Shown here piece by piece: positions 1 through 5,365 of a stretch of 64,000 bases of DNA. The stretch is from Pseudomonadota bacterium (GTDB lineage: Bacteria > Pseudomonadota > Gammaproteobacteria > JAKAQQ01). Within the stretch, counting starts at the first letter, position 1, and each line of letters begins with the position of its first letter. A program made the position numbers and the translations under genes. The notes beneath the pieces are model-generated. The model had not been told where the DNA came from, did no database searches, and worked only from the letters and a program-made list of their open reading frames with translations. The DNA lies in NCBI GenBank assembly GCA_027320085.1, contig DAHVLZ010000011.1, positions 64,155 to 128,154 of the forward strand, written 5' to 3'.

Positions 1-1683
1 CTGGAGGGAAGAGGCCAGGATCTGCTGGTAGGGTCCGCCCCCACCGCCCGATTGCGGCTGACGATAGGACGTGCTGTAGTTGGCGTAAACCGACCAGCCG
101 GGGAGAAAACGCCAGTTGGCAAAGAGAGACGGCTCGAGTCCCGTGAGGCTGGTTGACGAGCTGGGCAGCGCCGCCTGGTCGTGTCCCGTGGCATTCGGGA
201 AATCCGCGGATCCGTACACGTAGTAGTCGGTTCCATAATGCACGAAGCGCAGGCCCGGGGTCAGGGTGAACCGGTCGGGCAGATGGATCTCGTCCTGGGC
301 GAAGAGGGCCACCACATTCTGCTGCCAGATATCGCTCCGGTAGGAACCATTCGGCGCCACGTTGCTGCCGCCGAACAGCGGATTGTAGAAGGCATTCTTG
401 GAGTTGTACTTGCTCGTGATCCAGAAGGCCCCGAACTTGATGTCATTGGCCGGGAGCAACAGGCTGAAATAGGCCCGATCCCCGTAGGCATAGCCATGCG
501 GGTTGTTGTACTCGTAGCGGTTGGGCTGGTCCTGCTGGAAGTTGTAATCGTGAAAATGGAAACGGGAACCATAGCGGTACCAAAGCTCGGTATGGAAGCC
601 GAGATCCGAGGACAACGCCAGGTTGCTGCGGATGTAAAAGAGGTAGGTCCGATTGGCGTCATTCTTGTTCCAGACCGAATAGGGCAAGGCGCCGTAAAAA
701 CCCGTGGTCGCCTGGCTGTAGAGCGGTCCGGGGATGGGCGCGCCCGCAGCGGTGAGCCCGTTAACGGTGACGCCCGCGATCGGCTGGACCGGCACCACAT
801 TGGGCCGGAACGCCTGGCCATAGGCGGTATAGGCACCGAAACTCACACTGCCCGTGGCAAAGCGGTGCCGCGTCTTGAAGAACCAGGCATAGTCATGCCC
901 CGGGCTGGAGAACCCGTCGGGGGTCGAGCGGAAGCTGTCCTGATGGCCCACGCCGCCGGCCAGGACCGTCTCCCAGCCGTCGATCCGGCCGCTTTGTCCC
1001 TGGATGTAAAACCCCCGGGTGGCATCCGAGCCGGCCAAAAGGCTCACCTTGAACCCCGCGTTCGGACCAGGCTGGACGGGCACAAAATCAATGGCTCCGC
1101 CGATGTTGTCGTACCAGCGGTCGGCCGGCTCGCCGGGTCCGTAGGTCACGGCAATGTTCTGGATCATCTCAAGCTGGTTGACCTCCGGTGACTGCCAGAG
1201 TCCGGAAGCGACATTGTTCATGGGAATGCCGTCGAAGTTGACGGCGAGCGACCCATCGTCGATGGTGCCCCCCGAAGGCCCTCCCCAGCCCTGCTTGATC
1301 CCGTTGATGCTGAAGGAAAACTTGGTGGGACCGCCGTTACCGTAGCTGCTCACGGCCACCCCGGGAGCGATGGCCAAGGCCTGGGCGGCACCAGCGGCCG
1401 GTCCCGCAGCCCGGATCTCCTGGCGACCGAGCACCTTTTGGGCAACCGGAATCCGGAGCTGGGCCCGTTTCGATGCGGCTTCGAGCGCAAGCCGCCGCGA
1501 GTTTTTCCGGACCGAGCCGGCCTGGACCACGGTTCCGGCCGGTGGAGTCTTGGCGTGGGAGACCGGAACAGAGACGAGGCCCGCAAGGACGATGAGGCCC
1601 ACTGTCCACTCCCGTGTCTTCCTCCCGTTGCCCGTTCTTTTCCCCAATGGATTTTGGCTTTTATCGTTACCGACATGCAGCAT
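1..1683 (-). CDS. TonB-dependent outer-membrane receptor (5' part; runs off the window edge)
   Basis: Not in the ORF track because there is no stop in the window. Manual translation from ATG 1683: signal peptide (…WTVGLIVLAGLVSVPVSHA), plug-like region (QALAIAPGVAVSSYG…SINGI…VNFDGIPMNN…IQNIAVTYGPG…NIGGAIDFVP), then aromatic beta-strands (LFAQDEIHLPDRFTLTPGLRF; WSVYANYSTSYR). Lies downstream of tonB. Confidence 0.88.
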   Translation of the reverse strand, partial: MLHVGNDKSQNPLGKRTGNGRKTREWTVGLIVLAGLVSVPVSHAKTPPAGTVVQAGSVRKNSRRLALEAASKRAQLRIPVAQKVLGRQEIRAAGPAAGAAQALAIAPGVAVSSYGNGGPTKFSFSINGIKQGWGGPSGGTIDDGSLAVNFDGIPMNNVASGLWQSPEVNQLEMIQNIAVTYGPGEPADRWYDNIGGAIDFVPVQPGPNAGFKVSLLAGSDATRGFYIQGQSGRIDGWETVLAGGVGHQDSFRSTPDGFSSPGHDYAWFFKTRHRFATGSVSFGAYTAYGQAFRPNVVPVQPIAGVTVNGLTAAGAPIPGPLYSQATTGFYGALPYSVWNKNDANRTYLFYIRSNLALSSDLGFHTELWYRYGSRFHFHDYNFQQDQPNRYEYNNPHGYAYGDRAYFSLLLPANDIKFGAFWITSKYNSKNAFYNPLFGGSNVAPNGSYRSDIWQQNVVALFAQDEIHLPDRFTLTPGLRFVHYGTDYYVYGSADFPNATGHDQAALPSSSTSLTGLEPSLFANWRFLPGWSVYANYSTSYRQPQSGGGGGPYQQILASSLQ

Positions 1684-1766
1684 GATGATGATTCCCCAGG
1701 TTAGGTTTTATGAATAGACGCCAGTCACGGGGGATCCCCCTTGGGAGGATCCCCGGACCGATGCAT

Positions 1767-2531
1767 TTAGGCCGATACGTTGAGATGGACCCACAGCGCG
1801 AAGGTCGTGTTGACACGGGTCATCCGCGGCTCGAACGGCGGAAAGTCGGCACCCCGGACCGCCTTCAGGGCGGCATGGTCCAAGATGCCCGAGCCGCTCG
1901 ACCGCACCACCCGTGCCCACAGCATCTGGCCATCTGGCCGCAGGCGGAACTCAACCAGAGTCCGACCCCGGAGTCCCATCTCCCGCGCGATGGACGGCAC
2001 GACGAGGGCCGCACGAACCTGCTGGCGCAGGATAGCGGTGTAGAGGGCCAAGGGATTGATGGCACCCTGAGCGGCCGGCGGATGACTGGCGGACGGGTGG
2101 GGCAGGAAGAGGGCACGCGGGACCGGCAGGCCACCCGCCACCGGGGTGAGCGGCACGAGATGGGGCAGAACCGGGGTCAGATCCGAGGTCGGATGGACAG
2201 GAGGCGGGGGCTGCACCACCGGCTTCGGGGGTGTCCGCGGCGGGGCGACCAGCTTGACCGAGGTCACGGGGGGCGGAGCCGTGGTCTGGGACAGCTGCCC
2301 CGTCATCACCCACAGTCCGAGTCCGGCCATGAGCAGGAGCTCGACGGCGATCGCCATGCCGGCCGAGCGCCAGAAGGGCGGCCGGAGCCCATCCATCGCA
2401 AAAGCGGTTTCCGCGGGGGCCAGGCGTGGCCGGGCCGGAACCGAGGACTCCGGATGCCCGGGTCTTTTCAGGGACTCCGGGCCTAGGTCAAGAACTTCTA
2501 CAACGGCATTCATGGCAATACTCCGGTTCAC
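1767..2531 (-). CDS. tonB: Energy transducer TonB family protein
   Basis: N-terminal TM helix, Pro-rich linker (PPRTPPKPVVQPPPP), TonB_C-like domain (PSIAREMGLRGRTLVEFRLRPDG…RSSGSGILDHAALKAVR). The start could instead be ATG 2513. Confidence 0.85.
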   Translation of the reverse strand: MNRSIAMNAVVEVLDLGPESLKRPGHPESSVPARPRLAPAETAFAMDGLRPPFWRSAGMAIAVELLLMAGLGLWVMTGQLSQTTAPPPVTSVKLVAPPRTPPKPVVQPPPPVHPTSDLTPVLPHLVPLTPVAGGLPVPRALFLPHPSASHPPAAQGAINPLALYTAILRQQVRAALVVPSIAREMGLRGRTLVEFRLRPDGQMLWARVVRSSGSGILDHAALKAVRGADFPPFEPRMTRVNTTFALWVHLNVSA

Positions 2532-3235
2532 GCATCAGGAAGGGATTGGGATGGTTTCGGCGGCTGCGCCCGTTCGGGCCGGAACCGGTAACCAAACCGG
2601 AAAACGGTTTCAATCACCTGGCCCTGCCCGCGGGCCAGTAGCGCCTTGCGCAGGCGCGCGACATGGGCATCGACCGTGCGGAGATCGACCTGCGAACGAC
2701 CGCCCCAGAGCACTTCGACGAGTTCCTCGCGGTGATGAAGACGGTTCGGATATTCGAGGAAGTGGGCCATGAGAAGGTATTCCATGGGTCTCAGGTGGAT
2801 CTCTTCGCCACCGATGCTCACGGTATGGTTCCCCACGTCCAAGGCAAAGGGACCGGCCTGGAGACGGGCTGGGGATGGCTCGTCCACGCCCCTATCCGAC
2901 TCCCGACCCGCAACCCGCGGTCGCCCGGCCAGATGGGCCGGGTGCCCATCCATGCCCCGCACCGGTGACCGTTCCGGGATGATGAGACCGCTCCAGGCAT
3001 GACGGCCCAGCCAACGCGCCAGTTCTTCCTGTTCGGCTTCGGTCAGGGCTGCACCGGCCACCACCAGCCAGTCGACCTCCTCCATCTCCGCCTCGGTCAG
3101 CCCACCGGGCACGACTTGCATGGCCTGTGACAGGAAATCGCGCTCGAGCAGACGCTTGAGACCGGGATCGAGCTGGTGCACGGGCCCGATCACGAGACTC
3201 TTGGCGCCGGCTGGAATCACCCGTCTCCACTCCAC
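2528..3235 (-). CDS. OmpR/PhoB-family winged-helix regulator with degenerate (pseudo-)receiver domain
   Basis: PhoB-like C-terminal domain (LRPMEY…REELVEVLWG…RTVDAHVARLRKAL…IETVFRFGYRF). The N-terminus lacks the receiver acidic pocket. GGAGG RBS at 3243-3247. Confidence 0.85.
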   Translation of the reverse strand: MEWRRVIPAGAKSLVIGPVHQLDPGLKRLLERDFLSQAMQVVPGGLTEAEMEEVDWLVVAGAALTEAEQEELARWLGRHAWSGLIIPERSPVRGMDGHPAHLAGRPRVAGRESDRGVDEPSPARLQAGPFALDVGNHTVSIGGEEIHLRPMEYLLMAHFLEYPNRLHHREELVEVLWGGRSQVDLRTVDAHVARLRKALLARGQGQVIETVFRFGYRFRPERAQPPKPSQSLPDA

Positions 3236-3275
3236 GGTCCTGCCTCCGGGTCACGCCCGCTACTTCGACGCGCCT

Positions 3276-3353
3276 ATCCTAGAAAACGAACATGTCGCCT
3301 TCGTGAATGACTCGTGACAGAAAAATGAATCAAAAATGACAAAAACATGACGG
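3276..3353 (-). promoter_or_regulatory. Tandem Pho-box array (6 half-sites, 11-bp period) with a -10 element
   Basis: Minus strand reads CCGTCAT gttt TTGTCAT tttt GATTCAT tttt CTGTCAC gagt CATTCAC gaag GCGACAT, then 10 bp, then TAGGAT (3276-3281). This fits the CTGTCAT-N4 PhoB consensus and Pho-promoter geometry. The two half-sites nearest the -10 are weak matches. Confidence 0.8.
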
Positions 3354-3437
3354 ATATGCCGGCCCCGATCACCTCCACCGGCTGCAGGTCACACCCATGA
3401 CGGAATGACCGGCTTTTCGGCCCGTGCCCGGAAGGTC

Positions 3438-3487
3438 TTGACTGACCGGGCCGACATGCTATATTTGATTAAAGTTCATAAATCAAA
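3438..3487 (+). promoter_or_regulatory. sigma70 promoter of umuDC with overlapping inverted repeat (candidate operator)
   Basis: TTGACT (3438-3443), 16 bp, TG-c-TATATT (3457-3465). Inverted repeat TTTGATT-N10-AATCAAA at 3464-3487. AGGAG RBS follows. Confidence 0.65.
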
Positions 3488-3501
3488 AGGAGATCTCATC
3501 G

Positions 3502-4083
3502 ATGTCTCCCCGTGGTGGCCGGAGAAGCGGTGCCGGCCGCAAGCCGGGCAGCGGACGCTATGGCGAACCCACCCGTCCGTGGCGCATTCCGCAGAGTCTC
3601 GAACCGCTCCTCGCAGCCTGGCTTGCGGCCCATACCGACCGGACAGGCCGGCGACCCCAGGCCGTAGCTTCCCTGAAACCCGCTGGCGTACGGCGCACCC
3701 TCCTCCGTCCGACAGTCCGGGTACCGGCGGGTTTCCCCTCCCCGGCCGATGATTTCTTCGAAGCAGGCATCGATCTCAACGAACACCTCATCGTGGCCGG
3801 ACATGAGGCCCAGACTTTCCTTGTCCGGGTCACCGGCTGGTCGATGATCGGGGCAGGCATCCATGACGGGGACGAGGTACTGGTCGACCGGGCGATCGAA
3901 CCGCGCGATGGGGCGGTCGTGGTCGTCGCCCGTAACGGAGAATTGTCGATCAAGCGCCTCCGGCTTTCCGACGACCAGATCACCCTGGTTTCCGAAAATC
4001 CGGACTATCCGCCGGTCGTCTGGCGTGAAGGTGAAGACTGGCACTTCTGGGGAGTGGCCATCCGTGTCCTTCACCGTCTCTAG
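3502..4083 (+). CDS. umuD: UmuD/LexA-family S24 peptidase with N-terminal extension (UmuDAb-like)
   Basis: Cleavage site [11 protein letters not shown], catalytic Ser ([15 protein letters not shown]) and Lys (LSIKRL). N-terminal [12 protein letters not shown]…[11 protein letters not shown] extension. Confidence 0.9.
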
Positions 4084-5365
4084 CCTTCCCCTGACCGCCT
4101 TGATCGACGTCAACAATTTTTACGTTTCCTGTGAGCGTCTGTTTGATCCGTCACTCGCCGAACGGTCGGTCGTGGTTCTTTCCAACAACGACGGATGCAT
4201 CGTGGCGCGTTCGGATGAGGCCAAGGCACTGGGTTTCCCCATGGGCGCCCCATGGTTCCGCTGGCGCACATTGGCCCGCCGCTCGGGAACCATCGCGCTG
4301 AGCAGCAACTACGAGCTCTACGGTGACATGAGCCGGCGCATCATGCGCCTGGCTTCAGGCTTTGCCGACGAGCAGGAGATCTACTCGATCGACGAATGCT
4401 TCCTCAGCTGGCACCCGTTCCCGGCCGGCCGCTCCGCGGCCCGCACCGGAGAGGCCATGCGCGCCGACCTCGAGCGGTGGACCGGTCTACCCGTCAAGAT
4501 CGGTTTGGCCACAACCCGGACCCTGGCCAAACTGGCCACCCACTGGGCCAAGACCCGACCCGGAGCGGTACTGGCATGGCCCGAGCTGTCGCCGGATGAA
4601 CAGGCGGAGATCCTCCGTCGGACACCCCTCTCCGCACTCTGGGGAATCGGCCCGAACCGTGCCCACCAGCTGGGCCAGGACGGCATCCTGAATGCGGCCG
4701 ATCTCGTCCGCTGCAACCCCGGCCGGATCGCCGACCGCTTTGACCGACCCCTCGCACAAACCGTCCATGAACTGCGTGGCACGCCCATTTTCGGCAGCTC
4801 CCATCCCTCACCCACGGCACGCCAAAGCATTCTTTCGAGCCGCTCCTTCGGTGGCCCGGTGACGGATCCCGCCCTTTTGGCCGACAGCCTGTGCGTCTAC
4901 ATGAGCCGGGCCGCAGACAAGCTCCGTGGCGAGGGGGCCTCCGCTCTCACGGCCGGCATCTGGCTGGAAAGCCGGCAACGGGGCCGGCCCCGCCCCATCA
5001 CGCGATGGCGTCTCCAGGGACTCCCCCGTCCGACTTCCGACTCCCGATCCCTGATCGCCGCAGCGCTGGCCCTGCTGGCATCCCTCCACGAACCCGGACT
5101 CCCCTACACCAAATCCGGTGTCTACCTGGGCGATCTCGTACCGGAGGGTGCCGGCAGCGGCAACCTGTTCGATCGCCCAAACGCTACCGGCCGCGAGGAT
5201 CGTCTCTCCCGTCTCATTGACGAGATCCACCGGCGCTTCGGTCCACACGGCCTGGGCTACGGGGCGAGCGGCCTCGCCCATTCCCCGGCCTGGAATCCCA
5301 AACGGGACTTCCGCTCACCCGCCTATACCACCGACTGGCATCACCTACCCCTCGTCCGCGCCTGA
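4064..5365 (+). CDS. umuC: Y-family DNA polymerase V catalytic subunit
   Basis: [46 protein letters not shown]-terminal [15 protein letters not shown] start at 4064 inferred. Confidence 0.92.

Follow-up and report, generated by a model that had tools for sequence, protein, structure and literature searches.

A PhoB-like regulator with no detectable receiver domain behind a triple Pho-type box in a candidate outer-membrane uptake locus of an acid-mine-drainage gammaproteobacterium

Gene clusters that join a PhoB-like regulator to outer-membrane receptor genes have been reported from acidophiles. In the available part of Osorio 2008 (PMC2631029), receptor clusters of Acidithiobacilli and Leptospirilla are placed downstream of PhoB-like regulators of the OmpR family, and uptake of phosphate-chelated Fe(III) under a joint Fur-PhoB circuit is proposed. 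The available part of Quatrini 2007 (PMC1874648) gives the AFE0827 operon as a PhoB-like regulator, exbB, exbD, tonB2 and an AcpA-like phosphatase. The PhoB regulon of Caulobacter includes TonB-dependent receptors, according to the accessible text of that report (PMC11208175), and receptors of this type under phosphate-starvation (Pho) control are in general already known. Here we describe a locus at the left end of a 64,000-nucleotide stretch of DNA (contig C8:64155-128154, hereafter the window), in which genes for a PhoB-like regulator, a TonB paralog and a TonB-dependent receptor follow a Pho-type repeat array. Judged from its sequence, what sets the locus apart is a PhoB-like regulator that lacks a receiver and follows a triple Pho box.

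The genome containing the window comprises 2,144,631 bp in 47 contigs, is 96% complete and has a G + C content of 61%. Its host is an uncultured acid-mine-drainage gammaproteobacterium; source names of close protein homologues include 'mine drainage metagenome' and 'MAG: Gammaproteobacteria bacterium'. The array is followed, in minus-strand order, by a -10 hexamer, the regulator gene, tonB, receptor 1 and receptor 2, and then by a convergent typA/bipA gene. The array, the regulator, tonB and the TonB-dependent receptor were all found at the positions given in an earlier note on this DNA, and the features of the locus within the window are as follows.

3292..3353, minus strand: Pho-type array of six 7-bp half-sites with an 11-bp period, which make up three tandem Pho boxes (sequence, genome scan and conservation)
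3276..3281, minus strand: -10 hexamer TAGGAT, 10 bp after the last half-site (sequence)
2528..3235, minus strand: regulator, 235 amino acids (aa) (Pfam Trans_reg_C, NCBIfam and PDB matches)
1767..2513, minus strand: TonB paralog, 248 aa from the conserved ATG (Pfam TonB_C, alignment of 9 orthologues)
1730..1754, no strand assigned: GC-rich inverted repeat (GGGGATCC ... GGATCCCC) in the spacer between tonB and receptor 1, with no T-run (read from the sequence)
1..1683, minus strand: TonB-dependent receptor 1, N-terminal 561 aa (Plug and TonB_dep_Rec_b-barrel)

The locus resembles the AFE0827 operon and the clusters of Osorio 2008 in that a regulator of the OmpR/PhoB family comes first in a TonB-system or receptor cluster of an acidophile, and the AFE0827 operator contains an 11-bp-phased TCAT repeat like that of the window's array. 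The available parts of the two reports describe exbBD, phosphatases or surface-layer proteins in the Acidithiobacillus and Leptospirillum clusters and attribute these clusters to Fur and iron, whereas the window's operon, compared with AFE0827-type clusters by published description, has none of those genes, no Fur box and a long Pho-box array. The statement in the earlier note that no described system had this arrangement does not hold, since PhoB-like regulators head clusters of TonB, ExbBD, receptor and phosphatase genes in both genera (PMC1874648, PMC2631029, accessible parts). Within the terms and the collection searched, no paper was found that deals with the regulator family or with Pho-box arrays upstream of receptor operons in acidophiles.

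Read on the minus strand from 3353 to 3292, the array is CCGTCAT gttt TTGTCAT tttt GATTCAT tttt CTGTCAC gagt CATTCAC gaag GCGACAT, and exactly 10 bp separate the last half-site from TAGGAT (3281-3276). In a genome-wide scan with a loose half-site definition, at least three phased half-sites were found at 2 places in the 2,144,631 bp, and the array was the only site with more than three. The longest phased run in 20 shuffled genomes never exceeded three, and when periods of 7-16 were tested in the real genome a run of more than three occurred nowhere except in the array at period 11. Within the window the three-half-site pattern gave 2 overlapping matches, both inside the array, against 0.01 expected. 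The array is thus far beyond chance. A consensus promoter scan called no sigma-70 -35/-10 pair on the minus strand, which fits an activator-dependent promoter with the boxes standing in the place of the -35. PhoB-dependent promoters of the E. coli pstS type carry 7-bp direct repeats with 4-bp spacers beside the -10, replacing the -35 (PMC4971064, available part). The window's half-sites show the same repeat and spacer layout, with several tandem boxes, and the operon encodes a PhoB-like effector domain (1gxp, 3t72); it differs from PhoB-dependent promoters in having six half-sites with weak proximal ones and in encoding a PhoB-like protein that lacks a receiver.

The organism's own Pho genes provided a direct comparison. 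A canonical phoB, encoding a receiver and a winged helix, is present in the genome (281.6 bits on the PhoB model) within a Pho cluster (G000:C42:43283-47908) that consists of phoB, phoR, genes for a GNAT-type acyltransferase (PF13444) and an acyltransferase (PF01553), and phoU; pstS-pstC-pstA is also present, away from this cluster. The promoter of phoB reads CTGACAC agat TTGACAC, 10 bp, TATCAT and that of pstS reads TTGTCAC aaaa ATGCCAT, 10 bp, TAGGCT, and the array agrees with both in its half-site core, in its 11-bp period and in the 10 bp that separate it from a -10 of the form TAnnnT. All 10 genomes of the family contain pstS, and a box with the same geometry was found in each of the 8 pstS upstream regions read, those of the remaining two lying at contig ends. 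This agreement in motif, period and spacing with the phoB and pstS promoters of the genome and with the pstS promoters of the family (8/8) supports the Pho-regulon control proposed in the earlier note, and the operon is very probably controlled by phosphate starvation. The genome's other run of three half-sites, G000:C21:48678-48710 (+), lies upstream of the gene for a secreted-looking 972-aa protein that combines a region resembling a beta-propeller with a phosphoesterase (PF04185) domain, a probable member of the Pho regulon; since a run of three half-sites falls within chance numbers, this second array counts as supportive only.

Two further observations were made on the Pho genes of this organism. 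The acyltransferase genes in the Pho cluster on C42 look like phosphorus-free lipid genes. At G000:C1:310331-310380 (+), a near-perfect box, GTGTCAT aaca CTGTCAT followed by 10 bp and TATCAT, precedes a 473-aa open reading frame (stop to stop) that matches nothing in Pfam and has a hydrophobic stretch near its N-terminus; this frame could encode a Pho-induced envelope protein.

Nine homologous loci from 7 genomes were compared with the window's locus, making 10 loci in 8 genomes and 3 genera. The order regulator, tonB, receptor was found in all nine, the synteny that the earlier note had suggested looking for, and a second receptor comes next in six of them; elsewhere the contig ends or a receptor of another type follows. 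With the window counted, 3-6 phased half-sites followed by 10 bp and TA(G/C)(G/C)AT occur in 9 of the 10 loci, and the distance from array to start codon is constant (56-60 nt in 9/10). The tenth locus, from genus g2, has 2 strict half-sites, 2 weaker ones and TATCGT; in the G004 locus TCGAAG occupies the computed -10 offset, and TATCGT was read there by eye. The repeat cores are kept across loci in their 11-bp register and the AT-rich spacers are not.

Two genomes each carry two versions of the module (L096/L100 in G002 and L097/L101 in G007). The window's module looks mosaic between them: its regulator and TonB are like one version (67% identity) and only 49-55% identical to those of the other, and its receptors are like that other version (74-76%). 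In L097 (G007:C60) the match to the regulator copy is split into four segments that lie in different frames, which indicates a broken gene or an assembly error, and in L096 (G002:C12) tonB and the receptor are separated by about 800 bp of additional DNA.

The regulator gene (2528-3235, minus strand) starts with GTG, with GGAGG 7 nt upstream. Its product is laid out as an orphan N-terminal alpha/beta domain (about residues 1-90), a low-confidence linker (about 81-122) and a PhoB-like winged helix (about 125-220), and Trans_reg_C is its only Pfam domain (68.3 bits). The best NCBIfam match was PhoB (TIGR02154), over the C-terminal part only, with 81 bits against a cut-off of 296.2. Among solved structures the E. 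coli PhoB effector domain was the best relative (3e-17, gapless over 90 residues, 3t72 being the top PDB match), PhoB scored 66 bits against 50 bits for the next family, and the model of the DNA-binding domain superimposed on 1gxp with a root-mean-square deviation (rmsd) of 1.6 A. PhoB was also the closest of the genome's 3 OmpR-type regulators (59 versus 37 bits). The recognition helix reads RTVDAHVARLRKAL in the regulator, RTVDVHIRRLRKAL in E. coli PhoB and RTVDVYVGRLRKAL in the genome's own PhoB. The earlier description of the protein as PhoB-like is supported for its DNA-binding domain.

The N-terminal domain is a different matter. The earlier note called it a pseudo-receiver, yet Pfam detected no receiver (PF00072) in the regulator and 3 orthologues even at E<=1, and a profile of 8 N-domain sequences aligned to the receiver profile with a probability of 0.14% (hhalign). 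When the N-domain profile was searched against 1.84 billion representatives, 6 matches were obtained at E<=0.001, of which two were clear relatives, both from the regulator's own family, and the other four were weak or repetitive. A word-based search of 5.8 billion proteins returned 10 family members, in which Pfam finds no domain other than the winged helix, and a profile search of genome contigs with the regulator alignment gave, among the matches listed, generic OmpR-family proteins only, mostly from Streptomyces. The domain was found in 7 of 61 related genomes including the window's, with 6/9 genomes of its own family positive and no positive among 51 genomes that each represent another family of the class. 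Its 8 sequences, 34-87% identical, share 16 invariant columns. An alignment-based model gave a beta-alpha-beta-alpha-beta-alpha-beta order followed by a 40-residue low-confidence linker, with a predicted local distance difference test (pLDDT) of 50-60, and the single-sequence structure of the regulator had a mean pLDDT of 50. Foldseek aligned full-length regulators over about 250 columns with an rmsd above 10 A, and the look-alike of the N-domain in the Atlas, GlnR_1st, scored 0.76, which is below chance level. A Pfam match of the regulator to DUF4880 (FecR N-terminal) with E=0.02 was below the cut-off and was dropped. The N-domain thus appears to be a lineage-restricted orphan, for whose origin a pseudo-receiver is a reasonable guess and no more.

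In a MAFFT alignment with canonical regulators, the phospho-acceptor column of the family is G, N or K and the alpha4-beta5-alpha5 part is deleted. No kinase gene adjoins the regulator. The protein is accordingly predicted to have no phospho-acceptor pocket, and with no detectable receiver it probably acts without phosphorylation; of the earlier description as a phosphorylation-independent PhoB paralog with a pseudo-receiver, the independence is likely to be right, and the pseudo-receiver is not supported. The available descriptions of HP1043/HsrA, ChxR, GlnR and SsoR show the same combination of an OmpR-type winged helix, no working phospho-acceptor and no cognate kinase gene nearby. In those descriptions the four keep a recognisable, degenerate receiver, whereas the window's regulator has none detectable by sequence or profile and its N-domain, at about 90 residues, is too short for a full one.

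The missing stretch could point to a different role. OmpR/PhoB proteins dimerise through the alpha4-beta5-alpha5 face of the receiver when active, and a paralog without it might be a brake, made under PhoB control and occupying Pho boxes as a non-activating competitor in a negative feedback. PhoB effector domains freed of their receiver are active, which counts against such a brake. In PhoB, the Trp-Gly loop before the recognition helix contacts sigma-70; the corresponding W177 and G178, in the putative contact loop of the regulator, are invariant in its family. We regard the brake as improbable.

The TonB paralog (TonB_C, 53.8 bits in Pfam) is composed of a cytoplasmic N-terminal extension of about 47 aa with invariant positions, a transmembrane helix with an invariant Glu, a Pro-rich spacer and TonB_C. 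All 9 orthologues start with MNAVV or MNTV, and in one of them the open frame begins only one codon earlier. In the window the MNAVV start is ATG 2513, which has GGAG 7 nt upstream, lies 14 nt beyond the regulator stop and is most likely the true start. The 4-bp overlap of regulator and tonB in the earlier note would require a GTG at 2531 and is replaced by the 14-nt gap. An exbB-exbD-tonB set of the genome is located on contig C42, and ExbD matches were found on C42, C10 and C18.

Receptor 1 has 789 aa in full (L003:13469-15838) and extends 686 bp beyond the left edge of the window; receptor 2, wholly to the left, has 766 aa and is about 23% identical to it. Both contain PF07715 (Plug) and PF00593 (barrel), and no Pfam match to an STN extension or to an anti-sigma and extracytoplasmic function (ECF) sigma factor pair was found in either receptor or their neighbours. 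By source names, the family of receptor 1 occurs at 40-60% identity in Acidithiobacillus (42-47%), Metallibacterium, Thiomonas, Acidihalobacter, Acidiferrobacter and Hydrogenobaculum, and it is rare, being found in 5 of 300 randomly sampled genomes of the class at E<=1e-60. Among PDB sequences receptor 1 had zero matches and receptor 2 one weak match (PhuR, 5e-8), and NCBIfam gave only sub-threshold matches to siderophore and haem subfamilies. With no close relative of known structure and no curated subfamily for either receptor, the substrate is not readable from the sequence.

The genes were described in the earlier note as a single unit. The gene order agrees with this, and a simple unit is contradicted by a strong intrinsic terminator (stem-loop and T8) after receptor 1 and by a separate array before receptor 2. 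This array (L003:13290-13350, minus strand, about 800-870 bp left of the window) reads CTGTCAC tccc TGATCAC gttc GGATCAT ggag GTCTCAC ggtc CTGACAC, followed by 10 bp and CAAGAT; it is kept in a sister genome, and phased repeats stand at this place in the other five loci with a second receptor. The GC-rich hairpin at 1730..1754 was found only in the two closest loci. Elsewhere in the genome, a paralogous receptor with about 44% identity to receptor 1 is preceded by TGTCA repeats in 11-bp phase (G000:C22:75965-76060, minus strand), with no clear -10, and a conserved TGTAAC...TGTAGTACAAA element upstream of it is also present in the sister genome. Neither the boxes ahead of this C22 receptor nor those ahead of a G300 receptor count as more than leads, since they are single two-site matches or are followed by a poor -10.

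Taken together, the best explanation of the locus, and one that we consider reasonably likely, is a Pho-regulon outer-membrane uptake locus of an acid-mine-drainage gammaproteobacterium. When phosphate is scarce, phosphorylated PhoB (PhoB~P) would occupy the strong distal boxes, spread to the weak proximal pair and recruit RNA polymerase. The receiver-less PhoB-like protein would then be made and, as its N-domain has no phospho-acceptor pocket, its activity should follow abundance, not phosphorylation. It would bind the same class of repeat at its own promoter and at the receptor 2 array as a second-tier activator, in positive feedback or feed-forward; that it activates at both arrays is a possibility to which we give somewhat less than an even chance. 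The TonB paralog, powered by ExbBD encoded elsewhere, would energise both receptors, and these would bring in a substrate that carries phosphorus and is too big or too rare to enter through porins. In acid water rich in iron, this cargo could plausibly be a ferric-phosphate or polyphosphate-type complex, from which Pst would then take the released phosphate; whether the substrate contains phosphate at all we judge to be evenly balanced. A two-tier Pho cascade has a precedent in PUMA3 of P. aeruginosa, where PhoB turns on the sigma factor VreI and both then act on further Pho-box promoters (PMC4971064, available part). By the same part of that source, the second regulator of PUMA3 belongs to the ECF sigma factors and is paired with an anti-sigma factor, in which it differs from the PhoB-like DNA-binding protein of the window.

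A number of observations tell against this explanation. The genes that flank the locus, on the window side and in the 14 kb examined to the left of the window, include no exbBD, phosphatase, pstS, histidine kinase or lipoprotein gene, and the lack of the phosphatase, pstS and lipoprotein genes is unfavourable to it; to the left, where the earlier note had proposed to look for exbBD, phosphatase/phosphoesterase or pstS genes, a second receptor and then the convergent typA were found instead. Two-half-site matches are not enriched genome-wide (42 versus 62-75 in shuffles), so that the genome's pstS and phoB boxes rest on position and conservation rather than on statistics, and the case for the array on its length, position and conservation. 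The confidence of the regulator N-domain model is low (pLDDT 50-60). The proximal half-sites CATTCAC and GCGACAT deviate from the pstS-type core, as do all five half-sites of the receptor 2 array, and these could be paralog-specific rather than PhoB sites. In A. ferrooxidans, Fur bound an 18-mer upstream of the PhoB-like operon and repressed in vitro (Quatrini 2007, PMC1874648, available part). Lastly, G095, a genome from another family of the class, has a receptor 50% identical to receptor 1 in a locus where no array was seen and where a periplasmic protein of a broad solute-binding superfamily (Pfam SBP_bac_8, SBP_bac_11 and SBP_bac_6) is encoded next to tonB. This superfamily includes ferric-iron binders and would point to iron.

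The deviating half-sites would be expected if the locus were a self-contained, autoregulated module, whose arrays bind only their own regulator, look like Pho boxes through descent from PhoB and answer to a signal other than phosphate, such as a ligand or a protein partner, received through the N-domain. The array is always followed directly by the regulator gene as the first gene of the locus, and the 16 invariant columns suggest that the N-domain has a function, both of which suit such a module. The distal boxes, on the other hand, match or beat the pstS boxes of the family, the phoB and pstS promoters have exactly this geometry, and the recognition helix differs from that of PhoB at few positions; moreover, an activator that requires itself needs another trigger. 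A module of this kind appears unlikely.

The Fur result and the G095 locus bear on a further alternative, that the receptors import ferric complexes for iron, or for iron and phosphate jointly, with Fur as main or co-regulator. The available part of Quatrini 2007 reports Fur binding in an electrophoretic mobility shift assay as well as in-vitro repression at the PhoB-like/exbBD-tonB2/acpA operon of A. ferrooxidans (PMC1874648), the phosphate-chelated Fe(III) uptake proposed in Osorio 2008 (PMC2631029, accessible part) is in line with it, and database names of receptor homologues read 'iron complex outermembrane receptor protein'. In G095 the receptor stands behind a regulator that keeps a detectable receiver (35 bits), with Ala at the acceptor position by reading, and the gene order is regulator, exbB, exbD, receptor, tonB, periplasmic binding protein. 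In these organisms, receptor-linked OmpR-type regulators with dead or missing receivers seem to recur. For the window's locus, Fur boxes were scored with the 19-bp E. coli consensus, from which the host's own Fur motif may differ, and the best match was 9/19 in the promoter region 3236-3501 and 11/19 and 9/19 in the two internal spacers, against 10-12 of 19 positions in validated A. ferrooxidans Fur sites (PMC1874648, available part); nothing resembling a Fur box was thus seen. What the loci keep is direct-repeat cores at an 11-bp period and not an AT-rich palindrome. The 18-mer 'Fur box' printed for AFE0827 in the accessible text, when reversed, reads TCAT aaaa TTGTCAT, itself an 11-bp-phased Pho-box-like repeat, which suggests that it be re-read as a possible Pho box. 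Soluble iron is, in addition, plentiful in such waters, according to the available part of the same source (PMC1874648). Uptake for iron, alone or jointly with phosphate, is in our judgement an improbable account of this locus.

Uptake under Pho control has a parallel in Caulobacter, where ElpS and a neighbouring receptor are, in the accessible text of the source, a phosphate-starvation-induced outer-membrane system whose substrate is not known (PMC11208175); the window's receptors are candidates for the same kind of system. ElpS-type pairs and the phosphate utilisation pairs of Flavobacterium type join a receptor to a lipoprotein, whereas the window's locus has no lipoprotein partner gene, belongs by its receptor family to a group common to acidophiles, and has the regulator and the TonB paralog built in.

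How acidophiles obtain phosphate is poorly known. Phosphate is scarce in iron-rich acid mine waters, where it binds to or co-precipitates with ferric iron (PMC2631029, available part). For control of this acidophile-wide receptor family by phosphate and not by iron, the locus would offer a cleaner case than the Acidithiobacillus reports of 2007-2008, and a PhoB effector domain that lacks a receiver and is expressed from a Pho-box promoter amounts to a simple natural circuit in which feedback in two-component regulons could be tested. A more far-reaching proposal, which we put forward as a long shot, is that such proteins form a class in which a PhoB effector domain is joined to a lineage-specific sensing or dimerising domain. 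Fired once by PhoB~P, a protein of this class would hold both promoters on and commit the cell to TonB-powered import of ferric-phosphate-type complexes, and the N-domain or the 47-residue extension of TonB could feed substrate occupancy back to transcription without a sigma/anti-sigma pair. If this were true, ferric-phosphate-type complexes would be a phosphorus source particular to iron-rich acid waters.

On the other side of the locus lies a divergent umuD-like gene followed by a Y-family polymerase gene (3502-5365, plus strand). The first encodes a 193-aa UmuD/LexA-like S24 peptidase with an N-terminal extension of about 70 aa, and the second contains IMS, IMS_C and DUF4113 domains. The promoter of the umuD-like gene, TTGACT-16-TATATT (within 3438-3486), is overlapped by the palindrome TTGATT-N10-AATCAA (3465-3486). 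This palindrome is kept in two sister genomes and may be a non-canonical SOS-type operator.

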